Below are positions 1 through 12,388 of a stretch of 12,388 nucleotides of DNA, piece after piece (the stretch's first letter is position 1; the number at the start of each line of letters is the position of its first letter). The translations under genes and the position numbers were made by a program. Location of the stretch: the NCBI GenBank assembly GCA_043818055.1, contig JBDRGF010000074.1, positions 1-12,388 of the forward strand, written 5' to 3'. The notes under the pieces were generated by a model. The model was not told the DNA's origin. It saw only the letters and a list, made by a program, of their open reading frames with translations, and searched no databases. The DNA is from Pseudomonadota bacterium. Lineage in GTDB: Bacteria; UBA10199; 2-02-FULL-44-16; JBDRGF01.

Positions 1-696
1 ACGATTGCGAACATTCCTTTCAGGAATATCATTGCGGAGTTTTCGGAACAGCCTTCTTGGACAGGCACCAAGGTGCATACCGTTATTGATGGAAGTAGTT
101 TGGAGATTGAAAGCGGATACTTGTCGGGGACGTATGAGACGCCGGTGAGGGATTTAGGATATGTGTCTACGGTCTATATCGGCATTGAAGCCGTTATAAC
201 CATTGCCACGGGCAGGGCATTCGATGACGATTCGGTGACGAGGTTCAATACCAGCGACACGTTAAGGTTTAGCGGTGAGGAAAGTCCCGGGGCGGCCACG
301 TTCGAGATAAAAATATCAGATGACAACATCACATGGTCCGGCTGGATGGAGTATCAGGCCGGGGATTATAACTGCCGGTATTATCAAATAAGGATGACAT
401 TGACCAGAGAGAATGTGGGCGATGACCTTGAGTGCACGACGTTCGATCATTATGGGGATTTACCCGATGTGGATGAGTATGGAAGCGATACGGTAACCGA
501 CGCAGGAACGGGCAAGGCGGTCGTGTTTACGAAGAATTACCATGAAGAACCGAACGTGCATATCGAGATCACGTCAGGCAGTGGGATTTACGCACAATTC
601 ACAAGCAAGAGCACGACGGGGTTTACGGTGAAATTATATGACGCCTCTGGCGTTGCCCAGACCGGAGATTTAGATTGGCATGGGCATGGAATTTAA
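1..696 (+). CDS. Phage tail protein, C-terminal part (5' truncated by the window edge)
   Basis: Frame +1 is open from base 1 (TIANIPFRNIIAEFSEQPSWTGTKVHTVIDG...), so the GTG at 73 is probably internal. The sequence is Thr/Gly/Asp-rich and beta-rich (SDDNITWSGW, RYYQIRMTL). It ends in a VVFTKNY..PNV...GFTVKLYD...DWHGHG module like those at the end of phage tail-tip and fibre proteins. Confidence 0.7.
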   Translation, partial: TIANIPFRNIIAEFSEQPSWTGTKVHTVIDGSSLEIESGYLSGTYETPVRDLGYVSTVYIGIEAVITIATGRAFDDDSVTRFNTSDTLRFSGEESPGAATFEIKISDDNITWSGWMEYQAGDYNCRYYQIRMTLTRENVGDDLECTTFDHYGDLPDVDEYGSDTVTDAGTGKAVVFTKNYHEEPNVHIEITSGSGIYAQFTSKSTTGFTVKLYDASGVAQTGDLDWHGHGI

Positions 697-707
697 GGAG
701 AGAGAAA

Positions 708-923
708 ATGGCAAGAACTTTAGTGCCTCACAAAGTAGTCATCGAGTTCGAAGACGGAGAGTTCGTAAACGGCGTATTGATCTATAAGATAAACGATAAC
801 GGAGTGATCAGCAGATATAAAAGCGTCGGGATAAAAAATGCGGGTTTTGATAAGGTGAGCCTGAATGGGATACTGCAGAAATTCAATGCGCACGCAAAAC
901 AGGCGGAGGGAATCGATGGATGA
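708..923 (+). CDS. Small phage hypothetical protein, 71 aa (MARTLVPHKVVIEF...)
   Basis: ATG at 708 follows an AAGGAG RBS at the upstream stop, a better start than 675. The stop overlaps the next gene. Confidence 0.7.
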   Translation: MARTLVPHKVVIEFEDGEFVNGVLIYKINDNGVISRYKSVGIKNAGFDKVSLNGILQKFNAHAKQAEGIDG

Positions 924-1194
924 TTTAATTTGCGCCAAGTGCGGGAAGCCGATATCCCAGGATATGGCTTATGTCGTAGTAAAGGGAAGCATTGTCCTGA
1001 GGGAACCTAAAAAGAGGCCTATGGTTTTTACGTGCATAGAGCAGGCATATAACTACGCCCAGAGCTTGGTGGTGCATGACATATGTTGGATTACGATGCT
1101 TAGAGAGCATGGCGTGGAATTATACGATATGAACGAAGTAGCCAAAAAATACAAGAAGGAGACTCAAGATGGCTTGGGACAAAACAAAACCTGA
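916..1194 (+). CDS. Small putative Zn-binding phage protein, 92 aa (MDDLICAKCGKP...HDIC)
   Basis: GGAGG RBS precedes ATG 916. An N-terminal CxxC and a later HxxC could form a zinc site. Overlaps both neighbours. Confidence 0.65.
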   Translation: MDDLICAKCGKPISQDMAYVVVKGSIVLREPKKRPMVFTCIEQAYNYAQSLVVHDICWITMLREHGVELYDMNEVAKKYKKETQDGLGQNKT

Positions 1195-1813
1195 AAACGA
1201 TATGCTTCTGATCAACTTTCCGCCAGCATGCCGAGCGAACTGGGATGCATTGGAATTATTGACGGATGCTAATTTGCAGATAACCAATGCCAAAGTTGCG
1301 GCAGGTGCCGGGATTGTGGATACGAAGCTGGCACAGATTACGACTGCCAGCAAAGTTAGTGGATCGGCGTTGACCGGGCTGGCCAGCGTGCCTTCGGGTG
1401 CAGGGGTTCTGCCGGAGGCAAATTCTCCTAGCAAATTGAAAGCGGACGCAAGCGATACCACGCCTCAATATCTCGATGGATTAATCGATACGGGAGTATT
1501 CCAGGTTTCTGCTGGGGATTTATTACAACTTGCCAACGGCGGGGTCGGAACGGAGAAATTGGTTGGCGGTGCGGCGAGCCCTGGCAACAACAAGGCGTAT
1601 GGGACTAACAGCAGCGGGACAAAGGGTTTTTATGATGTGGTGGATTTAGCGACCAATCAAATATTAACTGGAGAAAAGACTTTCAATAATTTAAAGCTCG
1701 GGGGAAATGCCAATTGCAATCAGAAGCAATTAGTTTCGGCCGTGATAGAAAATAGGACGTCCGATCCAGGCAGTCCGGCCAATGGGCAGATATGGATTAG
1801 GACGGATTTATAG
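1169..1813 (+). CDS. Phage tail-fibre-like / structural protein, 214 aa
   Basis: AAGGAG RBS. Gly/Ala/Thr-rich with ITNAKVA and IVDTKLA-type fibre repeats, and a C-terminal RTSDPGSPANGQIW motif common in tail-fibre proteins. Confidence 0.65.
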   Translation: MAWDKTKPENDMLLINFPPACRANWDALELLTDANLQITNAKVAAGAGIVDTKLAQITTASKVSGSALTGLASVPSGAGVLPEANSPSKLKADASDTTPQYLDGLIDTGVFQVSAGDLLQLANGGVGTEKLVGGAASPGNNKAYGTNSSGTKGFYDVVDLATNQILTGEKTFNNLKLGGNANCNQKQLVSAVIENRTSDPGSPANGQIWIRTDL

Positions 1814-1825
1814 AGGTAAAAGAAT

Positions 1826-2701
1826 ATGCCAGATCCTTCTTGGAATTTAACTGATCAGGATTGCAATGCTTTCGATCTTAATTGGAGCGCAAATACCGTT
1901 GGATCGGCAACATTGATAACGACTACTTATGATGGTAGATCGGTATACAAATATGATTGCCCTCAGCCTGGATCCAGCAATAACGCCTATGCCGTCAATA
2001 GCAGTCTTTCGGCTTGGACCGAATGCACTGCAGAGGTCGTGTTTAGAATAGACGGCACAGATGGCAACCATATAGTTTTTCAATTCTATTTAAGGGACAG
2101 CACGCCTCACGAATACAATGCCAATCTGTATTTCGATACCCAGTGGACAGCTCATCCATATATTTGGATGGCGGCGCCGCTTCTGGGTGTCGATTTACAG
2201 CAATGGATTGATATCGATGAAAATGGGTGGCACACCTTGCGGGTAGTCATCAATAGTTCTCGTAAGATGTGGGTTTGGGTTGATGGCGTATACCTTGGGT
2301 CGATTACACATGATGGCACGGTAGCATCTGGCTATACGGTTAACACCATCGGAGTTCATGCATATGGGCCTCAGAGGACGCCCCCGCCATCGAATAGGGT
2401 GCTTTATATAGATCACATACGAATGTCATCTTCCAAGGTCGAGCCTGATTATCACGGTATTGTTAACGTGCAAGGTTATCCCATAAATACAAGGATGGCT
2501 TCTTTGGGCCCTGGAAATATGGGCGGTTTGACCGATGTCAATCCTGTAGATGTTTTTCGATATCTACGAACGGGGATGCCAAGGGGAGATGTTAGATATG
2601 GCCTTCCGATTGTTTCTACTGGCGATGGTTTGGCGAGTAAGGTCAGGCTATATTCGGGAGGTTCCATAAAAGCTTTACAGAAAATGCCGGTATCATTTTA
2701 A
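1826..2701 (+). CDS. Putative receptor-binding / tail-associated protein with a ConA/LamG-like beta-sandwich, 291 aa
   Basis: GAGG RBS. WHTLRVVINSSRKMWVWVDG and LYIDHIRM resemble concanavalin-A-like lectin strands. Aromatic-rich, and last gene of the tail block. Confidence 0.55.
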   Translation: MPDPSWNLTDQDCNAFDLNWSANTVGSATLITTTYDGRSVYKYDCPQPGSSNNAYAVNSSLSAWTECTAEVVFRIDGTDGNHIVFQFYLRDSTPHEYNANLYFDTQWTAHPYIWMAAPLLGVDLQQWIDIDENGWHTLRVVINSSRKMWVWVDGVYLGSITHDGTVASGYTVNTIGVHAYGPQRTPPPSNRVLYIDHIRMSSSKVEPDYHGIVNVQGYPINTRMASLGPGNMGGLTDVNPVDVFRYLRTGMPRGDVRYGLPIVSTGDGLASKVRLYSGGSIKALQKMPVSF

Positions 2702-2730
2702 CAAGATATTGCTTGAGGTAAATCGAGATC

Positions 2731-2982
2731 ATGACAGAAAAGACCGTACCAGAACGATTGGCAGTTATCGAAACGGAGATTACGAATATCAAAGAGACCT
2801 TGGATGATATCAAAAACAATCACCTGAACTCTATCTACAATAAATTCGACGATATGTGGCAAAAATTTGTTTGCTTCGAAAAGAAGATGACCAGCCGGTT
2901 GCCTTTGTGGGGCACGATGATGATAACCCTTTTGACTTCATTGTGCGTCGGATTGATAGTTTACGGAGTGATGAGGAAATAA
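2731..2982 (+). CDS. Holin-like protein (XhlA-like architecture: coiled coil plus one C-terminal TM helix), 83 aa
   Basis: N-terminal heptad ERLAVIETEITNIKETLDDIK, C-terminal hydrophobic LWGTMMITLLTSLCVGLIVYGVM with a basic end, located right after the tail genes. Confidence 0.5.
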   Translation: MTEKTVPERLAVIETEITNIKETLDDIKNNHLNSIYNKFDDMWQKFVCFEKKMTSRLPLWGTMMITLLTSLCVGLIVYGVMRK

Positions 2983-2998
2983 GAAAAAGAGGTGAGAT

Positions 2999-3493
2999 AT
3001 GCTGAGAAAAATAATCGTGATTTCGACGGTGAGTTTATTGCTGGCCGGGTGCGCGGGGATACCCTTCCCCAAAATTACGACTCCCAAGAAACCAGAAACG
3101 GTTTATAACTGGCGGGAAGAAGTAACTACGAAGCCCAGGGCGATAATAGCCGACGATAAGGCCTATGTAGTTGAGGAAACAAAAAAGACACTACAGGTAG
3201 GGCTGGAGACTACCCATCGCAACTTGACGCTGGGAGAGAAAATCGGCAACTGGTTTTCAGGGTTGAGCCTGCTGGCTATCATTGCTTTGGTTGTGGGATT
3301 GGTTTTGTGCCCGGGCGCCACTTTGGCCTGGCTGGTCAAGCTTCTTTTCAAATGGAAAAAGGCAATGAGAGAGACAGTGGCCGCTATCAAAGAATCCAGG
3401 GCAGTCGAGAATGCGGAATTGCATAATGCCCTGAAAGATAAACAAAGCGTCGAGACCAAAAAGATAGTCGGACAGATAAAGGCGGATCTTTAA
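2999..3493 (+). CDS. Lipoprotein with an internal TM segment (spanin-like lysis protein candidate), 164 aa
   Basis: GAGGTG RBS. Signal peptide MLRKIIVISTVSLLLAG-C with lipobox LAGC, and a second hydrophobic stretch LSLLAIIALVVGLVLCPGATLAWLV. Confidence 0.55.
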   Translation: MLRKIIVISTVSLLLAGCAGIPFPKITTPKKPETVYNWREEVTTKPRAIIADDKAYVVEETKKTLQVGLETTHRNLTLGEKIGNWFSGLSLLAIIALVVGLVLCPGATLAWLVKLLFKWKKAMRETVAAIKESRAVENAELHNALKDKQSVETKKIVGQIKADL

Positions 3494-3600
3494 AAATATT
3501 GCAGAATAAGGTGAATCTTGGAAAGCAAGAAAAGATGAAAGAATGAGTTGCATTCCCTTCTCTTTTACGGTCTACTCCCCCTATAAAGGAGGGGATTTTT

Positions 3601-3867
3601 ATGGTTCGTGAAAACATAACGGCAAAGAAGACGCGGTATATCAGTGTCAGAAACGGCGGCGAAGAGACGTATGTCGAGAATATTCCGGTATCCGGCCGGA
3701 TGAGGGATCACCTGCCAGCCGCAAAACTGCGTCTGCGGGAGATTCAGCGCGTGATGCCTCTTGGCAAATGGTCGATTACGATCGAACAGCAATGGAAGGA
3801 AAACGGCGTTACGCATTTCCAGATGCTCGATGTTGTAACCGGCAAATTGCAGGAGTCGGTGCTGTGA
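3601..3867 (+). CDS. Hypothetical protein, 88 aa
   Basis: Strong AAGGAGG RBS at 3586-3592. The stop overlaps the next start (GTGA). Confidence 0.75.
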   Translation: MVRENITAKKTRYISVRNGGEETYVENIPVSGRMRDHLPAAKLRLREIQRVMPLGKWSITIEQQWKENGVTHFQMLDVVTGKLQESVL

Positions 3868-4034
3868 CGGGCAAATACCAATGGCCAGCTTCGCGATTGG
3901 GCGATAAAGAGATGGCCTTGTTGTTTCGGGAGAAGCAGAAGGCCAAAAGGAGCATCTGCGAGTTGTTGCGCAGAGCTGTCGATATTGCCTATGGTGAGGA
4001 TTCTGGCAAAAAGGAGGATCAAGATGGCGACTAA
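3864..4034 (+). CDS. Small ribbon-helix-helix (CopG/Arc-like) DNA-binding protein candidate, 56 aa
   Basis: AGGAG at 3851-3855 then GTG 3864, a better start than 3768. MTGKYQWPASRLGDKEMALLFREKQKAKRSICELLRRAVDIAY fits strand-helix-helix with an S..EL.R.AV second helix. Confidence 0.5.
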   Translation: MTGKYQWPASRLGDKEMALLFREKQKAKRSICELLRRAVDIAYGEDSGKKEDQDGD

Positions 4035-4332
4035 ACAAAAGCAAAAACGTAAGAAACAAAAGGCTGTAGAAGATAAAAAGGTTTCAACCGTAAATTCTCC
4101 ATCGCCTAAAGAAGGAATTGTTATGCATGCCGGGGCATCGCGTAATGAACTTATGATGACGGCCAAGGAACGCGGGGTTAAAAACTTCCGCGTGCTAAAC
4201 AAGCAGGAGCTGATCGATGTATTGAAGAATATCGGAGATCAGAAAGCCATTAATACGATTGTGACCGGTGCGGTTGCCAGATGGAAATCCGGCTGGGGTA
4301 AGAGAAAGGACAAGAATGAAAGTCAAAGCTGA
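4024..4332 (+). CDS. Basic protein with a Rho_N-like (helix-extension-helix) nucleic-acid-binding motif, 102 aa
   Basis: AAGGAGG RBS before ATG 4024. SRNELMMTAKERGVKNFRVLNKQELID matches the Rho N-terminal pattern EL...AK..G......L.K.ELI. Lys-rich N-terminus. Confidence 0.65.
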   Translation: MATKQKQKRKKQKAVEDKKVSTVNSPSPKEGIVMHAGASRNELMMTAKERGVKNFRVLNKQELIDVLKNIGDQKAINTIVTGAVARWKSGWGKRKDKNESQS

Positions 4333-4630
4333 ACTTGATTTAAAGGTTGAAATGGGCGGCGTGTCGCATGACGGCACTGGATGTCAGGGTTATCTGCCGG
4401 AAGGTACGCGGTATGAGGATATTGTCCGGGTGTTCGGTGGACCCCAGCTTGGCAAATCGCCGGACGGCAAGATCAAGGTTGAGTGGGTTGGTAGGATCAA
4501 CGGCCTTCTTTTTACGATTTATGACTACAAGTCAAAGACTGATCCGGAGCAGAATATCGATTGGCATATTGGTGGGAAGACAAAATTTACAGCGGAATTG
4601 GTGAACTTATTCTTTAAAGCAAAGCAATAA
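4316..4630 (+). CDS. Phage hypothetical protein, 104 aa (GT..QG...Y......FG.P....DGK...EW...TIYD.K...WHIGG pattern)
   Basis: AAAGGA RBS before ATG 4316, a better start than 4268. The pattern resembles small phage proteins of unknown function. Followed by a terminator. Confidence 0.7.
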   Translation: MKVKAELDLKVEMGGVSHDGTGCQGYLPEGTRYEDIVRVFGGPQLGKSPDGKIKVEWVGRINGLLFTIYDYKSKTDPEQNIDWHIGGKTKFTAELVNLFFKAKQ

Positions 4631-4651: not shown

Positions 4652-4690
4652 AGAACCTCTGTTTGAAAAATAATCAATCAGAGGTTTTTT
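4652..4690 (+). terminator. Rho-independent terminator
   Basis: Stem AACCTCTGtTTGA / TCAAtCAGAGGTT with one mismatch and a 7-nt loop, running into TTTTTT (4685-4690), about 20 nt after the 4630 stop. Confidence 0.75.
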
Positions 4691-4691
4691 G

Positions 4692-4720
4692 TTGACACTG
4701 TTAGCTAACAGTGCTAACAT
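4692..4720 (+). promoter_or_regulatory. Sigma70-type promoter of the defence operon (probably leaderless)
   Basis: TTGACA (4692-4697), 17-nt spacer, TAACAT (4715-4720) with an extended -10 TG at 4712-4713. The ATG at 4727 sits 7 nt after the -10 box and has no SD. Confidence 0.8.
4696..4713. promoter_or_regulatory. Palindromic operator CACTGTTAG|CTAACAGTG
   Basis: Perfect 18-bp inverted repeat filling the -35/-10 spacer, extendable imperfectly to 4690-4719 (TGTT..AACA), directly upstream of an HTH-containing gene. Confidence 0.75.
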
Positions 4721-4726
4721 ATAGAT

Positions 4727-5986
4727 ATGGCTCAAGAAACTTTGGGGAACAAAATCAGAAAGGAAAGAAAAAAAAGGTCAATTTCTCTAAGAAAGTTGGC
4801 TGAGAATCTTGAAATAGCGCCAGCTTATCTTGTTGATATCGAAAAGGACAGAAGGATACCTTCTCAAGATATCATCCAGAAAATTGCCGACCTTCTTGAT
4901 GTTCCCATCGTTGAACTCCAACAGTTTGGATCTGATATTCCGAAACCAGTCAAAGAATGGCTTGAAGGAAATCCCGTCATTTCAAAAATCTTGAACCTCA
5001 TCAAGAAAACATCAATTCCCGAAAAAACAATTTCTGATTTTGAATCTTTTATTAAAAGTCCCCTAAATAAACAACCAATTCTTGCTATTTATGAATCTGA
5101 ATTACAGGCAATCGGACAAGAAAGCATTTCTTGGGATACAGAAACGGGAGGAGATCTTTTTGGTGTTAGTGGAGAGATGCCGATAATATACTTAGCAACA
5201 AGGTCTGGGCCGAATACCATTCGGAATCATGCTCATTTTCGTTTAGATGTTGAGTACCTAATAAAGTTGAGTATTGATCTTGATAATGATTGGGGACTGA
5301 GATATTTCGGAGATTGGCATTCCCATCATCGCTTAGGGCTTCAGTTCCCTAGCTCGGGAGACCAAAGAAGAATAAATCAAATTGCCAGGAAGAACAATTT
5401 TTTAGAAATGGCCGAGATGATTATTACGTTTTCATCATCGTTTGATTCGGATAAAAAAGTACAAGTAAACCCATACGTTTATTGTGAAGTTGTTTCAGAG
5501 GCACCAGTAGAAGCCGCTTTGATTATTTTAAAAGGATTAAGTCCTGTTCGGGAAGTTCTTCTCAAATCAGGAGGTTTCTCGGAACAACGCTTATTTCAAT
5601 ACTCTTCTTTTTCCATTGATCACATCATCGCGCCAAGAGAGCCTCTCGGAAGATTGCAAAGTGTAGAGGGTCTCCCAATTGACCAAATAACAGGAAAGGT
5701 ATTAAGGCGGGTAATATTGGAACTGGAGAAATTGTCTTGCGGAAAAATTGAAGAACACAAAACTCAATTCGGGCTTGTCTTAGTGGCACCAATAAATGAT
5801 GAAGAATATATTGGTTTTGCTATCGATGGTAAATGGCCGCATCAAATTCTTCAAATCAATTGGATTAATAGAAAAACAGGAAAGACTGAGGAGTTGCCAA
5901 TGCAACTAGATAATGCGACGCTTATAAATTTGCCGCGGTTGAATGAAATTTTCTGCAAAGCAAAAGATTTTAAAATTGCAAAATGA
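4727..5986 (+). CDS. XRE/Cro-C1 HTH fused to a JAB/MPN+ metallo-isopeptidase, plus a C-terminal domain, 419 aa
   Basis: aa ~5-65 LGNKIRKERKKRSISLRKLAENLEIAPAYLVDIEKDRRIPS is an XRE HTH. The JAMM motif is intact: E139 (ETGG), GDWH198-S-H200, PS209-S-G-D212. Confidence 0.85.
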   Translation: MAQETLGNKIRKERKKRSISLRKLAENLEIAPAYLVDIEKDRRIPSQDIIQKIADLLDVPIVELQQFGSDIPKPVKEWLEGNPVISKILNLIKKTSIPEKTISDFESFIKSPLNKQPILAIYESELQAIGQESISWDTETGGDLFGVSGEMPIIYLATRSGPNTIRNHAHFRLDVEYLIKLSIDLDNDWGLRYFGDWHSHHRLGLQFPSSGDQRRINQIARKNNFLEMAEMIITFSSSFDSDKKVQVNPYVYCEVVSEAPVEAALIILKGLSPVREVLLKSGGFSEQRLFQYSSFSIDHIIAPREPLGRLQSVEGLPIDQITGKVLRRVILELEKLSCGKIEEHKTQFGLVLVAPINDEEYIGFAIDGKWPHQILQINWINRKTGKTEELPMQLDNATLINLPRLNEIFCKAKDFKIAK

Positions 5987-6447
5987 CTATGGAAGAACGA
6001 TTAATATTAGAGAATCAGATACTTACCAGAGAGGGATTTTCTCAGTTTCAAATTTACACAGGACAAACTGCCGGAAATTATTATCTGTGGGGTGAGCAAC
6101 GAACGAGCAAGGGTAGTTCTTATAAAATTTGGAGTCCTATACCATCAACATACCCATATTCAAAACCACCTGTTTATGTTTATGACCCCAACCCTCTTTG
6201 GGCATATGGAGGAAACAAAACCGTTAATAGTTTTAGTGATAATGGTACTTCCCATAAAATGCATACATTAACAAATGGGCCGAATGGAGAAGTTCAAATT
6301 TGTCATTGGCATCCAGATCGTTGGCATAGCGGGATTACTCTTAACCGTGTAATGTTGAAGGTCGTTTTATGGCTTGAAGCTTATGAACAGCATCGAGACA
6401 CAGGTAAAGACATTTGTGACTTTGTTAGGACGATGGCGCAAACTTAG
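5983..6447 (+). CDS. Stand-alone E2/UBC-fold ubiquitin-conjugating-like protein, 154 aa
   Basis: UBC hallmarks: N-terminal RL..E helix, IPSTYPYSKPPV, H...NGEVQIC107 (putative catalytic Cys), W....TL..V....VLWL. ATGA overlap with the upstream gene. Confidence 0.8.
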   Translation: MTMEERLILENQILTREGFSQFQIYTGQTAGNYYLWGEQRTSKGSSYKIWSPIPSTYPYSKPPVYVYDPNPLWAYGGNKTVNSFSDNGTSHKMHTLTNGPNGEVQICHWHPDRWHSGITLNRVMLKVVLWLEAYEQHRDTGKDICDFVRTMAQT

Positions 6448-6456
6448 GAGATTTTT

Positions 6457-6636
6457 ATGGCAACTCAAAAAGAAATGATTAGGGAGGCTATGGAATCTAT
6501 AGCAGCCCGTAAACCGGGAAGAACAAAACTCGTTTACGATAAAAGCTCAAGAACGATAGTTGCTGTTTCTTTGACCGACCAAACTGTAAGAGGATTAAAC
6601 ATTTCGGCTGAAGATGCTGACATGTTTTTAAGCTGA
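6457..6636 (+). CDS. Unannotated 59-aa protein MATQKEMIREAMESIAARKPGRTKLVYDKSSRTIVAVSLTDQTVRGLNISAEDADMFLS
   Basis: Not in the ORF track, whose shortest ORFs are 60 aa. AGGAG RBS at 6446-6450, ATG 6457, and its TGA (6634-6636) overlaps the E1 ATG (TGATG). It fills the E2-E1 gap exactly. Confidence 0.85.
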   Translation: MATQKEMIREAMESIAARKPGRTKLVYDKSSRTIVAVSLTDQTVRGLNISAEDADMFLS

Positions 6637-7952
6637 TGATTACTATTACTGCTGAATATTTAAATCAAAATTGGAATATCCTACAGACGAACTCTATTCT
6701 ACCCACTCCATTGTCTGAATGGGACAATGGCGATGCATATACTTTGGCCTCCTTAGGACAATTTCCAAGTTCTAAAACTGTATTTGCTGCTATTGTTCTT
6801 GGTGATAAAAAACTAAGCGATTTTCAGTTCATAATCCGACTTCATAAACTGGAAAATGACACTCCCCAATCTTATCGTGCACCTACAGGTGATATATATG
6901 AAGCCGTTGCCGAAGCTATTGTTGATGGAAATTCCAAAAAAATTGAAATCAAGATAGTTAGTCTCATGATTGATTTGTCTTGTCGGCGTAAAAAGTTGAT
7001 TGAGGCAGATTTATTAAAAGACGTAACGGTTTTTATCGTTGGTTTGGGGACTGGTGGTATACAGGTTGCTTTAGATTTGGCGAAATCTGGAATTGGCAAA
7101 TTTAATCTTATGGATCCAGATAGGTTAGAAGTTGGGAATATATCTCGACATTACGCGGGTATATCTCTCGTGGGTCGAACAAAAGTAAAGGCCGCTAGGG
7201 ATTTAATCTTAGATAAAAATCCAATGGCTGAAGTTGAAACCTATGTAATGTCTGCTGAGCCTGACCAGAGAGAGGTGTTGAGAGAATTAATTGAAAAAAG
7301 TTCCCTAGTTATTTGTGCTACAGATAACCGTCAAAGCAAACTCTTACTGAATGCACTGTGTGTAACATTACGAAAGACTATAATTTTCGGTGGGGCTTTC
7401 CAACGAGCCTATGGAGGGCAAGTATTTCGGGTACTTCCAGGAGTTTCTCCTTGTTACCATTGCTTCGTTTTGGCCGTACCAGGTAAAGAATCTGATATGG
7501 AAATTTCTTCTCAGAGAAATGCTGACGCGATTGCTTACTCGGATATGCCAGTAGCAGTAGAGCCTGGTCTTTCGATAGATGTTTCTCCGATTGCGAATTT
7601 GATTTCTAAACTTGCTGTGATGGAGTTAATAAAAGGAAAAGATTCGACACTGCATATTCTTGATGAAGATTTCACAGCGCCTTGGTATCTTTGGGTGAAT
7701 CGACCAGAACCAAACACTGAATATGCAACGATTCAGCGACTAAGTGAAAGTGGCGTTGAAGGTAAAGACGGAATGACCATCCTTCGTTGGTATGCAATCC
7801 ATCTGAAAAAAGAATTAGCATGCCCCACATGCGGAGATTTCGAGGGTGCATTACGCAAACAATACGGATTAGTTGAGGGAGATAAACCTTCTCTTTTATC
7901 TCTTCGACTTCCAAACCAAGAATCAGAGAGGGAAATAAATAATGGAACTTAA
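6636..7952 (+). CDS. ThiF/MoeB/E1-family adenylyltransferase with a ~115-aa N-terminal extension, 438 aa
   Basis: VFIVGLGTGG nucleotide-binding loop, DPDRLEVGNISRH, GRTKV, CATDN, and Zn ligands C273xxC276 and C396xxC399. Confidence 0.9.
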   Translation: MITITAEYLNQNWNILQTNSILPTPLSEWDNGDAYTLASLGQFPSSKTVFAAIVLGDKKLSDFQFIIRLHKLENDTPQSYRAPTGDIYEAVAEAIVDGNSKKIEIKIVSLMIDLSCRRKKLIEADLLKDVTVFIVGLGTGGIQVALDLAKSGIGKFNLMDPDRLEVGNISRHYAGISLVGRTKVKAARDLILDKNPMAEVETYVMSAEPDQREVLRELIEKSSLVICATDNRQSKLLLNALCVTLRKTIIFGGAFQRAYGGQVFRVLPGVSPCYHCFVLAVPGKESDMEISSQRNADAIAYSDMPVAVEPGLSIDVSPIANLISKLAVMELIKGKDSTLHILDEDFTAPWYLWVNRPEPNTEYATIQRLSESGVEGKDGMTILRWYAIHLKKELACPTCGDFEGALRKQYGLVEGDKPSLLSLRLPNQESEREINNGT

Positions 7953-8820
7953 TACTTATTTTCAAGGTTTGCTTAGCAATATCGAGCCTGATGACAAAGC
8001 AGTAGCAAAAGCAAAGAAGGCTCATGGGGATTTACGTGAGATTTTAAAAAATGATAAACAAATATCTGATGCAGATCCTGATACGTATTTAGCCGGATCG
8101 TATGCGAGAGACACTGCTATAAACTACATCAAAGATGTGGATGTGATTTTATTAGTAGATCTTGATAACAATAAAACCTCGCCTGATGTCGCAGTCGCTT
8201 GGGTACAGGCGTCACTCCAAGAACATTACTCCAAAGTTATCCCTCAAGGACGATCTGTCCAAGTAAAAACAGACAGCGGTTTTGAATTGGATGTTGTGCC
8301 ATCTATTCCAATTGGGGATCGGAATGGTCCTATCTTAATACCTGATCGAGACATAAAAAACTGGGTCGCTTCTCATCCAAAGGGGCAAATTGCTTTTGGA
8401 GTAGATAAAAATAAGGCCACGGGAGAATGTTACAAGCCCTTAGTAAAGATTATGAAATTTTGGAGAGACAGGTTTAGCAGTGAAACCGCAAAAGTTAAAT
8501 CCTATATTCTTGAGAATTTAATTGGGGAGAATCTAACGGGACAACCTTCTTGCTATGATTCAGGAGTAGTTTCGATTCTGCAAAATGTCTATCAACGCTA
8601 TGCCGTGTATCTGAACACGCGCGTTGTTCCTAGAATTATGGATTTAGGGTATCCATCAGTTAATGTGGCGAAGAGGTGGAAATTTAATGAATTTGCCGCA
8701 TTTATGGAGGAAGTAAGAAAAAGTCAGATGATTGCCAACTCTGCCTTAGAATCACAGAGTGAACAGGAAAGCATAAAGCTTTGGAGACAATTATTCGGAA
8801 CAAAATTTGAATCAAAATGA
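7942..8820 (+). CDS. CBASS cGAS/DncV-like nucleotidyltransferase (CD-NTase, SMODS), 292 aa
   Basis: Pol-beta NTase motif G52-S53-Y...D65-V-D67, third Asp D117 (ELDVVP), then PDRD..W..SHPKG, KPLVKIMKFWR, SYILE and terminal WRQLFG..F. Adjacent to a SAVED effector. Confidence 0.9.
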   Translation: MELNTYFQGLLSNIEPDDKAVAKAKKAHGDLREILKNDKQISDADPDTYLAGSYARDTAINYIKDVDVILLVDLDNNKTSPDVAVAWVQASLQEHYSKVIPQGRSVQVKTDSGFELDVVPSIPIGDRNGPILIPDRDIKNWVASHPKGQIAFGVDKNKATGECYKPLVKIMKFWRDRFSSETAKVKSYILENLIGENLTGQPSCYDSGVVSILQNVYQRYAVYLNTRVVPRIMDLGYPSVNVAKRWKFNEFAAFMEEVRKSQMIANSALESQSEQESIKLWRQLFGTKFESK

Positions 8821-9980
8821 TGCAGCCGCCAAAATTTTTTCTTAGTTATAGCCGCAAGGATGTAGAAGATCTTGCAATTATTGCCCGGATTTTGATGATT
8901 CATGGCATAAAGACTTGGCAGGATATTAATAGCCTTGGTTCTGGGTTAACGGAGGCAGAAATTCGGAAAGCAATTCAAGAAAATTGTACGGGTCTCGTGT
9001 TTTATAGCACGGATGATAGTTTAAAAGCCCCAATGATTCGGAATGTAGAACTCAAAGTTGCAGAGGAGAAATTTTTGCAGGACAAAAATTTTCATATCGT
9101 TCCAATTTTTAAGTCGGGTATTGAAGCATCAAACATTGCTCTTAATGGCTGTTTGAAAACTAAAATATCAGACTTTAATGGAACCATCGTTAGAGATAAT
9201 GATCTCATGGCGGCCGCGCAGAGAGCAGCCTCTCTAGTTTTAAAAAATTTGAGTTTTCCAACGAAAGATTTCCTACCTGTAGGGGTAGTTTCATATCAAA
9301 AAAACTCTGATGACGTTGCTTTAAACCTCGATTTCACTCCCTATTTTCAGGAAGGCTTGCCGCTTGAGAAAACATGGAACAGAGAGTTTGTACCCGCTAT
9401 CGCCTCCTTAAAAGAATCCTTATTGTCAAAAAGAATCACGAATTTAAGATTGTTTTCTCGTGCCCATCTTTCCTTTGGACTTATGTTTGGGTATATCTTT
9501 CGGGATCGGACAGGATTTGTTATTGAGGTTGAACAAATCAACAAACCCAATAGAGAAATATGGAGTACTCAAGCGAAAGAGGAGAGTACTATGCTTACGA
9601 TTGAATGCACCCCAGTAACCAATTTTGGCGTAAAAGACATTGTAGTTAATTTGAATATTATATCGGATGATAATAATTCGTTTAGCAATTACGTTCAAAA
9701 ATCAGGTCTTCGCTATCGGGCATTGATAGAAGCAAAGCCGTCTTCTTATCCTTTCTTGATCTCCAATGGTCAAGCAGTTGTAATCGCTCGTGAGTTAACA
9801 AACAAAATCAAAGAAGCCCATGGAACATATAATACAAATGTTGTGCATCTATTCGCTGCGGTTCCATTTGGTCTTGCCGTAATAATCGGACACCAACTAA
9901 ATGCATGCGGAAGGATTCAATGTTATGAATTTGATAAAGCCAAGAGAGAATATTCCCCTTCGGTTACGTTAGAAAATTGA
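8817..9980 (+). CDS. TIR-SAVED CBASS effector (cyclic-oligonucleotide-activated NADase), 387 aa
   Basis: N-terminal TIR: FFLSYSRKD, TWQD, putative catalytic E78 (RNVEL). C-terminal SAVED: AHLSFGLMFGY, VHLFAAVPFGLAVIIGHQLN, IQCYEF...Y.PS. ATGA overlap with the cyclase. Confidence 0.9.
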   Translation: MMQPPKFFLSYSRKDVEDLAIIARILMIHGIKTWQDINSLGSGLTEAEIRKAIQENCTGLVFYSTDDSLKAPMIRNVELKVAEEKFLQDKNFHIVPIFKSGIEASNIALNGCLKTKISDFNGTIVRDNDLMAAAQRAASLVLKNLSFPTKDFLPVGVVSYQKNSDDVALNLDFTPYFQEGLPLEKTWNREFVPAIASLKESLLSKRITNLRLFSRAHLSFGLMFGYIFRDRTGFVIEVEQINKPNREIWSTQAKEESTMLTIECTPVTNFGVKDIVVNLNIISDDNNSFSNYVQKSGLRYRALIEAKPSSYPFLISNGQAVVIARELTNKIKEAHGTYNTNVVHLFAAVPFGLAVIIGHQLNACGRIQCYEFDKAKREYSPSVTLEN

Positions 9981-9989
9981 GGAATATTA

Positions 9990-10087
9990 ATGCTCGATAT
10001 AAAAACGCTTGTGAGCTATGGTTGTGGGATGCAATGTGCAGTATTGTCGAAATTCTCGACACGATGGAGAAAAAGGACAAGAAGTAA
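9990..10087 (+). pseudogene. Degenerate remnant resembling a type I R-M HsdM N-terminus
   Basis: GAGGA RBS then MLDIKTL. After skipping 2 nt (GT, 10011-10012) it reads ELWLWDAMCSIVEILDTMEKKDKK*, like the HsdM N-terminal pattern LE.WLWDAAC.IRG. The TAA overlaps the hsdR ATG. Confidence 0.5.
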
Positions 10088-12388
10088 TGACGAATAAAAA
10101 AGAATTATCAGAACGGGATATTTGCACGCAATTCATTCTTCCTGCCCTTGTAAAGGCTGGATGGGATGTTGCAAAGCAAATCAGGGAAGAGGTTTATTTC
10201 ACTGACGGGCGTATTTTTGTAAAAGGCAACAAAACTGCTCGGGGTGAAAGAAAGCGCGCCGATTTTATTCTATATCTCAAACCGAATATTCCAATCGCTG
10301 TCATTGAGGCGAAAGATAATAACCATTCCGTTGGGTCCGGCCTACAGCAGGCGTTGGGTTACGCGAAGATACTCGATATTCCGGTTGCCTTCAGTTCAAA
10401 CGGTGATGGATTTGTTCAGCATGATCTTTCCGGGTTCACTCCAGCGATTGAGAAAGAATTATCTTTAGATGCTTTTCCCTCCCCTTCCGAACTTTGGCAG
10501 ATGTATAAAAAACATAAAAAGATCACAACTCCCGAACAGGAAGAAATTGCATCATTCGATTATTTTTTTGATGGGTCAGGGCGTGCGCCCCGTTACTATC
10601 AGCAAATAGCAATAAATAGAACAGTTGAAGCAATCGCGCGCGGCGAGAACAGGGTTCTTCTTGTAATGGCTACCGGTACGGGTAAGACGTATACGGCTTT
10701 TCAGATTATTTATCGCCTTTGGAAAAATGGGCGTAAGAAACGAATCCTTTTTTTAGCAGATCGCAATGTGCTTCTGGATCAAACCAAGCGAAATGATTTT
10801 AAGCATTTTAAAGATCGAATGACGGTTATAAAAAAGAAGAAGATCGACAAAGCGTTTGAAATATACCTTGCTCTTTATCAGGGGTTAACGAACTACAACG
10901 AGGATAAAGACGCATATAAAGAATTCAGCCGGGATTTCTTTGATCTTGTGGTTGTTGATGAGTGCCATCGCGGGAGTGCAGACGCTGATAGTGCTTGGAG
11001 AGCGATATTGGAGTATTTTAGCTCTGCGACCCAGATCGGTCTTACGGCAACGCCGCGGGAAACAAAAGAAATTTCAAATATAGAATATTTCGGCGATCCT
11101 ATTTATACCTATACACTCAAACAGGGTATAGAGGACGGATTTTTAGCTCCTTACAAAGTCATACGTGTCGGACTCAATACCGACCTTGAGGGTTGGCGTC
11201 CGGACGCAGGCAAAAAAGATAAGGACGGCAATGAGGTTGAGGATCGGATTTATAACACTAAAGATTTTGACAAAAACCTTGTTATCGATGAACGGACAAA
11301 GATTGTAGCCAAGAAAATTTCAGAGTATTTAAGAAAAACCGACCGTTTTGACAAAACAATAGTATTTTGTGTTGATATTGAACACGCCGAACGCATGAGA
11401 CAGGCGTTGGCTATTGAGAACTCGGATTTGGCGCTTGAGAATTATAAATACATCATGCGAATAACCGGTGATGATGATGAAGGTAAACGAGAAGTAGACA
11501 ATTTCATAAATCCCGAAGAGCGTTATCCGGTTATAGCCACCACTTCAAAGTTGATGACCACCGGTGTTGACGCGCAGACCTGCAAATTGATTGTGCTTGA
11601 TTCAAATATCAAGTCGATGACTGAATTCAAGCAGATTATCGGGCGTGGGACACGTATTAATGAAGAATATGGTAAAACTTTTTTCGCCATTATGGATTTT
11701 CGCAATGTGACCGATCTTTTCGCTGATCCGGCTTTTGATGGTGATCCTGTTATGATCAAGCAGGTTAAGGGAGAAGAGGAATTAACAGACCAAGATATTA
11801 ACCCGGAAGAAGGTCAGGAAACCATTGATCCTGATACTGGAAAGCCGGTTGATTTCGAAAAAGAAGAAACAAAAGAGTATTCGGTTCAACCAGAAATTAT
11901 CCAAGGCGGGTCAATAGTATCCGAGCCTCAGCCGAAGATTTATGTGGCAGGCGTAGATGTTTCGGTCTTAAATGAGCGGGTTCAGCATTTAGATGCGAAC
12001 GGCAAATTGATCATAGAGACGTTAAAGGATTACACGAAAAAAAGTATCCTGCAGGAGTTTCGATCTCTTGATGATTTCCTTGCTAGGTGGAACAGTGCAC
12101 ATAAAAAGAAGGCAGTTGTCGAGGAGTTAGAATCTCACGGTATTATTATCGAAAATCTGATGTCAGAGGTAAAGAAGGATTTGGATGTTTTTGACCTTAT
12201 CTGTCACATTGCGTGGGATATGCCCGCGCTTACCCGCAAAGAGCGATCCGACCAAGTGAGGAAACGTAATTATTTCACTAAATATGGTGAAAAAGCCCGT
12301 GTCGTTATTAATGCTTTGTTAGATAAATATGCCGACGAAGGAATCGAGAATATTGAAGATTTGTCAGTTTTAAGAATTGATCCGTTTA
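10087..12388 (+). CDS. hsdR: Type I restriction enzyme R subunit, EcoAI-like (3' truncated by the window edge)
   Basis: Absent from the ORF track because there is no stop in the window. Reads MTNKKELSERDICTQFILPAL..., nuclease motif RADFIL...IAVIEAK, QALGY, helicase motifs MATGTGKT, DECHRGSA, GLTATP, LMTTGVD, FKQIIGRGTR, and C-terminal DVFDLICHIAW...LTRKER. Spot checks kept one frame to base 12388. Confidence 0.95.
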   Translation, partial: MTNKKELSERDICTQFILPALVKAGWDVAKQIREEVYFTDGRIFVKGNKTARGERKRADFILYLKPNIPIAVIEAKDNNHSVGSGLQQALGYAKILDIPVAFSSNGDGFVQHDLSGFTPAIEKELSLDAFPSPSELWQMYKKHKKITTPEQEEIASFDYFFDGSGRAPRYYQQIAINRTVEAIARGENRVLLVMATGTGKTYTAFQIIYRLWKNGRKKRILFLADRNVLLDQTKRNDFKHFKDRMTVIKKKKIDKAFEIYLALYQGLTNYNEDKDAYKEFSRDFFDLVVVDECHRGSADADSAWRAILEYFSSATQIGLTATPRETKEISNIEYFGDPIYTYTLKQGIEDGFLAPYKVIRVGLNTDLEGWRPDAGKKDKDGNEVEDRIYNTKDFDKNLVIDERTKIVAKKISEYLRKTDRFDKTIVFCVDIEHAERMRQALAIENSDLALENYKYIMRITGDDDEGKREVDNFINPEERYPVIATTSKLMTTGVDAQTCKLIVLDSNIKSMTEFKQIIGRGTRINEEYGKTFFAIMDFRNVTDLFADPAFDGDPVMIKQVKGEEELTDQDINPEEGQETIDPDTGKPVDFEKEETKEYSVQPEIIQGGSIVSEPQPKIYVAGVDVSVLNERVQHLDANGKLIIETLKDYTKKSILQEFRSLDDFLARWNSAHKKKAVVEELESHGIIIENLMSEVKKDLDVFDLICHIAWDMPALTRKERSDQVRKRNYFTKYGEKARVVINALLDKYADEGIENIEDLSVLRIDPF

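Follow-up and report, generated by a model that had tools for sequence, protein, structure and literature searches.

A conserved type II-like CBASS with separate E1, E2 and JAB proteins, a tail-less cyclase and a 59-residue peptide that is likely the conjugated tag

The operon and the closest described systems

In type II CBASS (antiphage signalling systems based on cyclic oligonucleotides) of the Cap2/Cap3 kind (for example, E. cloacae CdnD02, 7TO3, and B. cereus CdnD), E2 and E1 are fused in one protein, Cap2, whose E1 part carries a crossover Cys, and the cyclase has an extended tail ending in a conserved Gly or Ala. Only two classes of type II are listed in the accessible text of PMC12948482, according to which E2-CBASS (type II short; S. 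marcescens CdnG-E2, 8HSB) has no E1 or JAB, and its cyclases are long, mostly of clade G, and carry a C-terminal E2-binding motif. Among the ubiquitin-like systems, Bil (types I and II, BilABCD) and Bub (6E / DUF6527) are the nearest to the locus described here. This locus is a six-gene operon in the 12,388-nt contig JBDRGF010000074.1 (assembly GCA_043818055.1) of a Pseudomonadota bacterium. The entire contig (C74) is the window referred to below; it belongs to a 2.93-Mb genome, 93.6% complete, in the rest of which no second copy of the operon was found. Judged from its sequence, the operon is a type II-like CBASS with a ubiquitin-like regulatory step that lacks the defining features of Cap2/Cap3, E2-CBASS, Bil and Bub, and apparently it represents a conserved, undescribed form of CBASS.

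The six genes, all on the + strand, lie at 4727-5986, 5983-6447, 6457-6636, 6636-7952, 7942-8820 and 8817-9980 and encode proteins of 419, 154, 59, 438, 292 and 387 aa, with a single intergenic gap of 9 nt. A preliminary description of the window had proposed these open reading frames (ORFs) and their junctions (ATGA at 5983, AGGAG at 6446, TGATG at 6634-6638, an 11-nt overlap at 7942-7952 and ATGA at 8817), and all are present as proposed. Its domain calls hold as well, with HTH_3, ThiF, SMODS, TIR_2 and SAVED found by Pfam, JAB by PADLOC and E2 by predicted fold only, and the residues that it named are both correct and invariant: E2 C107 (111/111), JAB H198 and H200 (87/87), cyclase D65 and D67 (85/85) and TIR E78 (11/11).

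The first protein (4727..5986) joins an Xre/Cro-like helix-turn-helix (HTH; Pfam HTH_3, 3.5e-13) to a JAB/JAMM metallopeptidase (PADLOC JAB, 3e-9) and a C-terminal domain. Its E139, H198, H200, S209 and D212 are invariant in 87/87 homologues. By eye the C-terminal domain had been taken for an inactive E2/RWD fold, but neither E2 profile comparison nor a PDB search gave anything significant. The second protein (5983..6447), without a match in Pfam, PADLOC or NCBIfam, is a stand-alone E2/UBC-fold protein by prediction (model pLDDT 93.6). The top row of its VIA-align comparison is SmE2 of E2-CBASS (8HSB_B, Z 10.2, root-mean-square deviation (rmsd) 3.7, 131 aligned), with which eukaryotic E2 rows at Z 9.6 tie. 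Cys107, His91, His94 and His108 are its invariant residues.

The E1 (6636..7952) consists of an N-terminal domain resembling the Cap2 linker and the ATG7 N-terminal domain, followed by a ThiF adenylation domain (Pfam ThiF, 6e-37), and its ATP-binding and Zn motifs are intact. Residues 1-390 of the model align to Cap2 7TO3_A 172-600 (Z 19.6, rmsd 6.3, 329 aligned), and therefore the E1 would correspond to the Cap2 linker plus adenylation domain without the E2. Profile comparison of the N-terminal domain with JAB and E2 gave no match. The fold matches include ATG7, and relatives by both sequence and fold include PaaA and MccB, whose alignments cover the adenylation domain only. According to the accessible part of the Ledvina preprint, the Cap2 linker has the same fold as the N-terminal domain of ATG7, by which separate E2s are recruited. 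In the crossover loop Tyr301 is invariant (87/87), a Cys between positions 277 and 312 occurs in 1/87, and the Tyr is also kept in the more distant relatives L045, L105 and L160. The preliminary description makes no mention of the missing E1 Cys.

The cyclase (7942..8820; Pfam SMODS, 1.9e-21; AGSY motif) is clade-D-like, with CdnD enzymes as its best PDB relatives and with intact GS and DxD...D motifs. Only 2-3 residues follow its last aligned position, compared with 30 in CdnD02, 37 in the 9SA4 entry and 3 in a tail-less type III CdnD. The tail is of 1-7 residues in 84/85 homologues, and the last residue varies. Because the tail is short and its last residue unconserved, the known type II substrate is missing here. 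By analogy, the product is likely cyclic tri-AMP (cA3), given the XGSX motif proposal in the accessible part of PMC13424991 and the NucC partners of related cyclases. The last gene (8817..9980) encodes a TIR-SAVED effector (Pfam TIR_2 and SAVED; PADLOC SAVED_TIR, 7.5e-54). TIR-SAVED proteins have NADase activity, and the protein is predicted to be a cyclic-oligonucleotide-activated NADase, exchangeable among loci. The general features of CBASS are thus present, namely a CD-NTase with intact motifs and an adjacent effector predicted to respond to a cyclic oligonucleotide.

With Cap2/Cap3 systems the operon shares a clade-D-like cyclase, SAVED or NucC effectors, a JAB with intact JAMM motif, an E2 with catalytic Cys and an E1 with a Cap2 linker-like domain. 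However, in the window as in the loci inspected E2 and E1 have an ORF each, the crossover Cys is replaced by Tyr301, the cyclases lack the extended tail with its conserved Gly or Ala, and there are a conserved peptide gene and a JAB C-terminal domain, often with an HTH, in addition. PADLOC models match the cyclase, E1, JAB and effector but neither the E2 nor the peptide, so these loci may be annotated as type II CBASS of the ordinary kind. The likeness to E2-CBASS lies in the stand-alone E2, with SmE2 as its top structural row, and in related Atlas clusters 15-35% of the members have PF26395 E2-CBASS. In contrast to E2-CBASS, JAB and E1 are nearly always present (see below), and the cyclase is of 292 aa and CdnD-like.

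Bub resembles the present family in its homodimeric-type E1, whose invariant crossover Tyr replaces Cys and would be catalytic here too, and in JAB processing of a modifier-enzyme fusion, proposed for the present family; the accessible part of PMC11601596 reports that the Bub Tyr is catalytic and that its JAB cleaves the fusion. Unlike the present family, Bub has an E2 that uses Ser instead of Cys107, a Gly-ended beta-grasp ubiquitin-like protein (Ubl) instead of a peptide whose conserved end is ADMF, and DUF6527 (BubE), for which no Pfam match was found among the window ORFs scanned and no room exists between the six genes. Its gene complement lists no cyclase. Bil has separate E1, E2, JAB and modifier genes and JAB pre-processing of the modifier, which is proposed here as well. 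However, its E1 is of IAD-AAD-CYS architecture while the present one has one adenylation domain and the Cap2-linker-like domain without a Cys domain, its modifier is again a beta-grasp Ubl that ends in Gly, and neither cyclase nor effector is listed for it. The preliminary description was thus right that the operon fits neither type II CBASS nor Bil. ATG7 with ATG3/ATG10 is comparable in that the E1 N-terminal domain would recruit a separate non-canonical E2, but it has a crossover Cys and Gly-ended Ubls. No CBASS with separate E1, E2 and JAB plus a peptide was found in the literature, with the limit that tables and supplements of Millman 2020, Burroughs 2015 and Ledvina 2023 (Nature), beyond the reach of the search, could list such loci. 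None of the families 6a-6e, as given in the accessible part of PMC1779556, has the present gene set.

Loci for comparison were fetched with 46 aligned E2 sequences (that of the window and 45 out of 110 homologues). The 127 loci obtained comprise 46 of GTDB genomes, the 80 best among 203 metagenome matches and a single viral contig. Relatives with a fused E2-E1 would be under-sampled by this stand-alone E2 query. Where the flank sufficed, JAB lies upstream in 118/118 loci, the peptide comes next in 119/122, E1 in 110/111 and the CD-NTase in 93/94, the last being the co-occurrence for which the preliminary description had proposed a neighbourhood survey. The full order JAB, E2, peptide, E1, CD-NTase is kept in 88 of the 90 loci with enough flank; the two exceptions are a frameshifted assembly (L046) and a sister system (L045). 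L044 is likewise a frameshifted assembly, and the peptide of L046 is readable across frames. Named hosts include Omnitrophota, Alphaproteobacteria, Acidobacteriota and Planctomycetota, and cultured ones are Mesorhizobium loti DSM 2626, Bradyrhizobium niftali and B. nitroreducens. The module is rare: an E1 profile matched 0/92 other genomes of the window's phylum and 3/301 genomes in the phylum of genome G041. In one Afipia assembly (L019:10444-12756) peptide, E1 and CD-NTase form one 770-aa ORF, which is either genuinely fused or the result of misassembly.

Pairwise identities of E1, E2, JAB and cyclase are correlated among 68 loci (Spearman 0.83-0.91, kin being not independent). The effectors that follow the cyclase, classed by grouping and named by scanning representatives of the groups, are of several kinds (n=86): nuclease-SAVED (52), a TIR-SAVED group (11), single-transmembrane (1TM; 11), NucC (9) and singletons (3). 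The HTH is fused to JAB in 41 of the 68 loci with 3 kb of flank. This is one conserved system with a swappable output and no chance merger. The co-occurrence and the correlated divergence support the earlier suggestion of a distinct four-gene conjugation module, and they disfavour, for present-day loci, its alternative of two merged systems. Its view of a cyclic-oligonucleotide NADase output holds for the link to an output, but the TIR NADase itself belongs to the variable part; similarly, an HTH-JAB as first gene is correct for the window but variable in the family. The 1TM effector (167-174 aa, after the cyclase in 11 loci; for example, L003:4662-5165 and L021:12878-13390) is of a family also matched by a type III CRISPR-associated model.

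Two sister modules lack the cyclase. L045, from a Binatia genome, has an E1 with the Tyr, a JAB, an E2 and a small ORF with a near-end Phe-Phe motif, and no SMODS match was found in its genome. In L158 a JAB-E1 fusion is accompanied by a small ORF with a near-end aromatic motif and by a weakly matching E2-like gene (E 0.015), with no cyclase match within 14.9 kb. These cyclase-free modules suggest that the module was once recruited to a cyclase. The gene order at L045:3673-12816 is Hsp70-like, two unassigned genes, E1, JAB, E2, small ORF and a MotA/ExbB-like gene. L158:6059-9201, L159 and L160 hold more distant E1 relatives on integrative-element-like DNA, and those of L158 and L160 adjoin HerA/VirB4-like ATPases.

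The peptide and its viral copies

The third gene (6457..6636, + strand) encodes a 59-residue peptide that ends in ADMF and a variable tail, with Phe57 as the predicted mature C-terminus. It has no match in Pfam, PADLOC, NCBIfam or PHROG and no usable Atlas match. Nevertheless, this micro-protein is encoded by a real gene. Against 121 homologues there are 2908 synonymous and 1950 non-synonymous codon differences, so the peptide is under purifying selection, and elsewhere it is fused in frame to E1. Mean pairwise identity over the same 68 loci is higher for the peptide (0.73) than for E2 (0.57), cyclase (0.57), E1 (0.54) and JAB (0.49). DMF is kept in 121/122 peptide matches; the one without it, L114, was left out of the peptide alignment. 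Asp55 is invariant and lies in an acidic stretch before the free tail.

What follows the Phe is not conserved in the unfused forms. In 54 such sequences the next residue is any of 14 kinds or a stop, two of them stopping exactly at F and only five having Gly there. Their tails are of 0-9 residues, with one of 28, and a few are fused forms cut by contig ends. An in-frame fusion of peptide and E1 occurs in 54 of 111 loci, and in the fused sequences F is followed by A, G or S in 52/53. In a quick tree, where sister rows sit on long branches, the fused form is a single derived clade (49 rows, SH-aLRT 100) beside several split lineages. Outside the tree, two short metagenome contigs (L071 and L074) carry split-clade-like peptides fused to E1, which are independent fusions or sequencing errors.

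A search of 1.84 billion representatives with a peptide profile gave 139 matches, of which 8 long repeat-like proteins were excluded as likely noise before counting. Among the others, the Phe57 position is the exact end of 13 (as F, I or Y), 8 continue beyond it for 1-9 residues, 9 are long or fused proteins, 95 are without the end motif and 6 without the anchor. Thus 13 of the 21 stand-alone distant homologues that keep the end motif stop exactly at the Phe57 position. The distant homologues retain the hydrophobic end more than the Asp. A profile of the distant peptides matched 0/64 other genomes and 0/401 genomes.

These observations suggest that the 59-residue peptide is likely the conjugated tag. 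Intact E1 and E2 need a carboxylate to act on, and none of cyclase, E2, JAB and E1 has a constant last residue, so the peptide remains as the candidate donor. Together the data favour a donor with a hydrophobic mature end.

Copies of the peptide gene are also found in viruses. A scan of IMG/VR with the peptide alignment gave 14 loci, one of them the operon-bearing contig; the remaining 13, of which three are near-identical, match no operon protein but the peptide within up to 6 kb, and 10 of the 11 loci scanned lie amid phage replication, recombination or packaging genes. Two further scans added L148 and the near-identical L163 and L164, whose peptides stop a few residues short of the end motif. 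In 12 viral copies tested, the DNA is 74-94% identical to host peptide genes over 42-171 nt, and DMF is missing in 11 of them; L131 keeps ADMF and L128 keeps the Phe. Control scans of IMG/VR gave 1 locus for E2, 0 for E1 and 1 for JAB, the matches being the operon contig, although the scan patterns differed in stringency. Whole virus records, several of which are fragments, contained no E1 (4 records), no SMODS (4) and no E2 (5). The peptide has no match among 50,697 GenBank phage records.

In L128 (6001-6296 of a 47.8-kb virus record), the peptide gene is followed by a 39-codon ORF that starts like E1. Because the first E1 codons follow the peptide gene, the transfer was from host to phage. 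A reading of this copy as inactivated by the change of ADMF to ADRF was softened, since other family members end in RRF. The truncated viral copies are likely decoys that compete for E1, E2 or a reader surface.

Proposed mechanism and alternatives

The explanation to which we give somewhat better than even credence is a CBASS with a tail-less cyclase, in which the peptide is a tag trimmed after Phe57 and attached by E1 and E2 to a target that controls the cyclase. The JAB would trim the peptide after Phe57, and the same cut would release it where it is fused to E1. E1 would then adenylate the trimmed end and hand the peptide to Cys107 of E2, either through an oxyester on Tyr301, as in Bub, or straight to the E2 Cys. 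Both routes are plausible, because the Bub Tyr is catalytic and the E1 Cys of Cap2 is dispensable in vitro (according to the accessible part of 10.1101/2022.03.31.486616). The tag would be joined by an isopeptide link to a lysine of the target, for which the first guess is the cyclase itself and the second a phage or host protein. During infection the cyclase would be activated, and cA3 would switch on the TIR-SAVED NADase. A bolder version is tentative and falls somewhat below even credence: a non-ubiquitin modifier of 57 residues with a C-terminal Phe, passed from an E1 Tyr oxyester to an E2 Cys thioester in an ATG7-like split Cap2, would gate a tail-less cyclase, and tag genes that phages captured more than once and truncated would yield a new family of anti-CBASS decoys, which would make both a new class of CBASS and a new kind of ubiquitination.

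Several observations weigh against a trimmed peptide tag. Characterised substrates end in Gly or Ala, unlike a peptide with C-terminal Phe, and since the A/G/S junction of the fused forms resembles the FA with which the B. cereus cyclase tail ends, the cut in these forms is possibly one residue later. The loop that holds Tyr301 is modelled with low confidence (residues 299-311 at pLDDT below 50). The end-motif rule applied to the distant homologues was post hoc and missed at least one diverged fused case (P0222), and the 21 end-motif homologues are known here from protein sequence alone. The small ORFs of L045 and L158 are unmatched by the peptide profile, their homology being by position and motif only, and a search with that of L045 returned just itself. 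Some viral matches are short (17-32 aa), with E-values relative to candidates only, and a captured motif might be spread by mosaic shuffling of phage genes in the absence of selection. The usual end of the fused-clade cyclases is FG and one further residue, which makes a trimmed cyclase possible as substrate, and the conservation pattern of the peptide fits also a non-covalent subunit, with its Phe packed on the E1 N-terminal domain.

The last two points lead to an alternative in which a split Cap2 has the peptide as its adaptor or non-covalent subunit, docked on the E1 N-terminal domain, and in which another molecule (an FG-trimmed cyclase end or a small molecule) is conjugated. The gene order of E2, peptide and linker-E1 indeed parallels the domain order of Cap2, and the frequent in-frame fusion to E1 with a small residue at the junction is as expected of such a subunit, as are the FG-x ends of most fused-clade cyclases. 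However, the E1 N-terminal domain is well predicted without the peptide (pLDDT about 88-96) and covers the whole Cap2 linker from 172, the split-clade cyclases have no terminal Gly and tails of 2-7 residues (36/37), and the fused form is one derived clade. Since, moreover, distant peptides tend to stop exactly at the Phe position and L045 has the module without a cyclase, we regard this alternative as unlikely. Another possibility is that the tag is repressive or guarded: constitutive tagging would hold the cyclase off, removal by JAB or phage interference would trigger it, and the viral copies would be an extra brake or the guarded threat. In the accessible part of PMC11153139, the proposal for B. 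cereus is that conjugation to PspA holds the cyclase back, and infection is accompanied by deconjugation; the retained ADMF of L131 and Phe of L128 are also consistent with it. On the other hand, loss of DMF in nearly all viral copies better suits competition with an activating step, and B. cereus mutants in the catalytic Cys of E1 or E2 lose immunity and are not toxic (same source, same part), so a repressive tag appears quite improbable.

The E1 might alternatively perform chemistry like that of ribosomally synthesized and post-translationally modified peptides (RiPPs). MccB and PaaA are known for adenylation of an internal acidic side chain or for peptide maturation, and in a similar way the E1 would adenylate the internal Asp55 or mature the peptide into a small signal. 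The invariant Asp in an acidic stretch with a free tail behind it, and the relationship of E1 to PaaA and MccB in sequence and fold, are in line with this. Nevertheless, the match of the E1 N-terminal domain to the Cap2 linker, while PaaA and MccB align to the adenylation domain only, together with an invariant E2 Cys and an intact JAB, which point to transfer and removal, and the preference of distant homologues for the hydrophobic end over the Asp, leave it very doubtful. Finally, two independent defences could stand under one promoter: a peptide conjugation with phage proteins as its direct targets, and a type I-like CBASS with no need of that conjugation. In favour of this, type I and III enzymes are tail-less as well, and cyclase-free sister modules exist. 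Yet within this clade the cyclase follows in 93/94 loci with enough flank, and its divergence parallels that of the module whereas the effectors are swapped, and this is the arrangement that we consider the least probable of all.

Setting of the operon and meaning of the family

A hairpin with a T run (4654..4686, + strand), an inverted repeat with 13-nt arms that is absent from the terminator-scan list, is likely the terminator of the upstream, higher-GC region; GC is 38.7% in the operon vs 46.8% in the 4.6 kb on its left. It is followed at 4690..4720 (+ strand) by a sigma-70-type promoter (TTGACA, 17 nt, TAACAT) overlapped by a palindrome with 15-bp arms, and the transcript from it is likely leaderless. 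A single promoter had been claimed, and indeed 4692-4720 is the top-scoring promoter-like site of the window (10/12), which has 30 such sites, a number not above shuffles (27.6). Likewise, no obvious internal terminator was to be expected, and the terminator-like matches within the operon all lie inside ORFs (16 across the window vs 10.7 +/- 3.1 in shuffles). The palindrome is likely the operator of the fused HTH, which by binding over the promoter likely represses its own operon. Its core is found upstream of 24/62 HTH-fused loci vs 0/29 HTH-less loci (background 1.3%), and several other HTH loci have, by eye, a different palindrome. No Rfam family was found in the window.

Positions 1-4630 of the window hold co-oriented, unannotated ORFs of higher GC that by eye resemble the tail and lysis end of a prophage; nine of them were scanned, with no PHROG match at 1e-5. 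ORF 4268-4630 is the only one of this region with a partial match upstream of the operon of L047. Directly after the operon (10018-12388) lies a type I restriction subunit R of the EcoAI/FtnUII type, cut by the contig end. At this position L047 and L001 have a methylase and a helicase gene, and because these neighbours differ, the operon seems to sit in variable defence islands.

In the E1/E2-linked CBASS considered for comparison the cyclase itself is conjugated. The present family appears to uncouple the tag from the cyclase and may therefore offer a direct way to test the role of conjugation in the activation of CBASS. It also offers a separate-E2, ATG7-like layout. If the proposed mechanism is true, E1 chemistry would extend to a bulky aromatic C-terminus and to a mixed Tyr-to-Cys relay, and the viral copies would be ready candidate inhibitors that indicate which interface matters.

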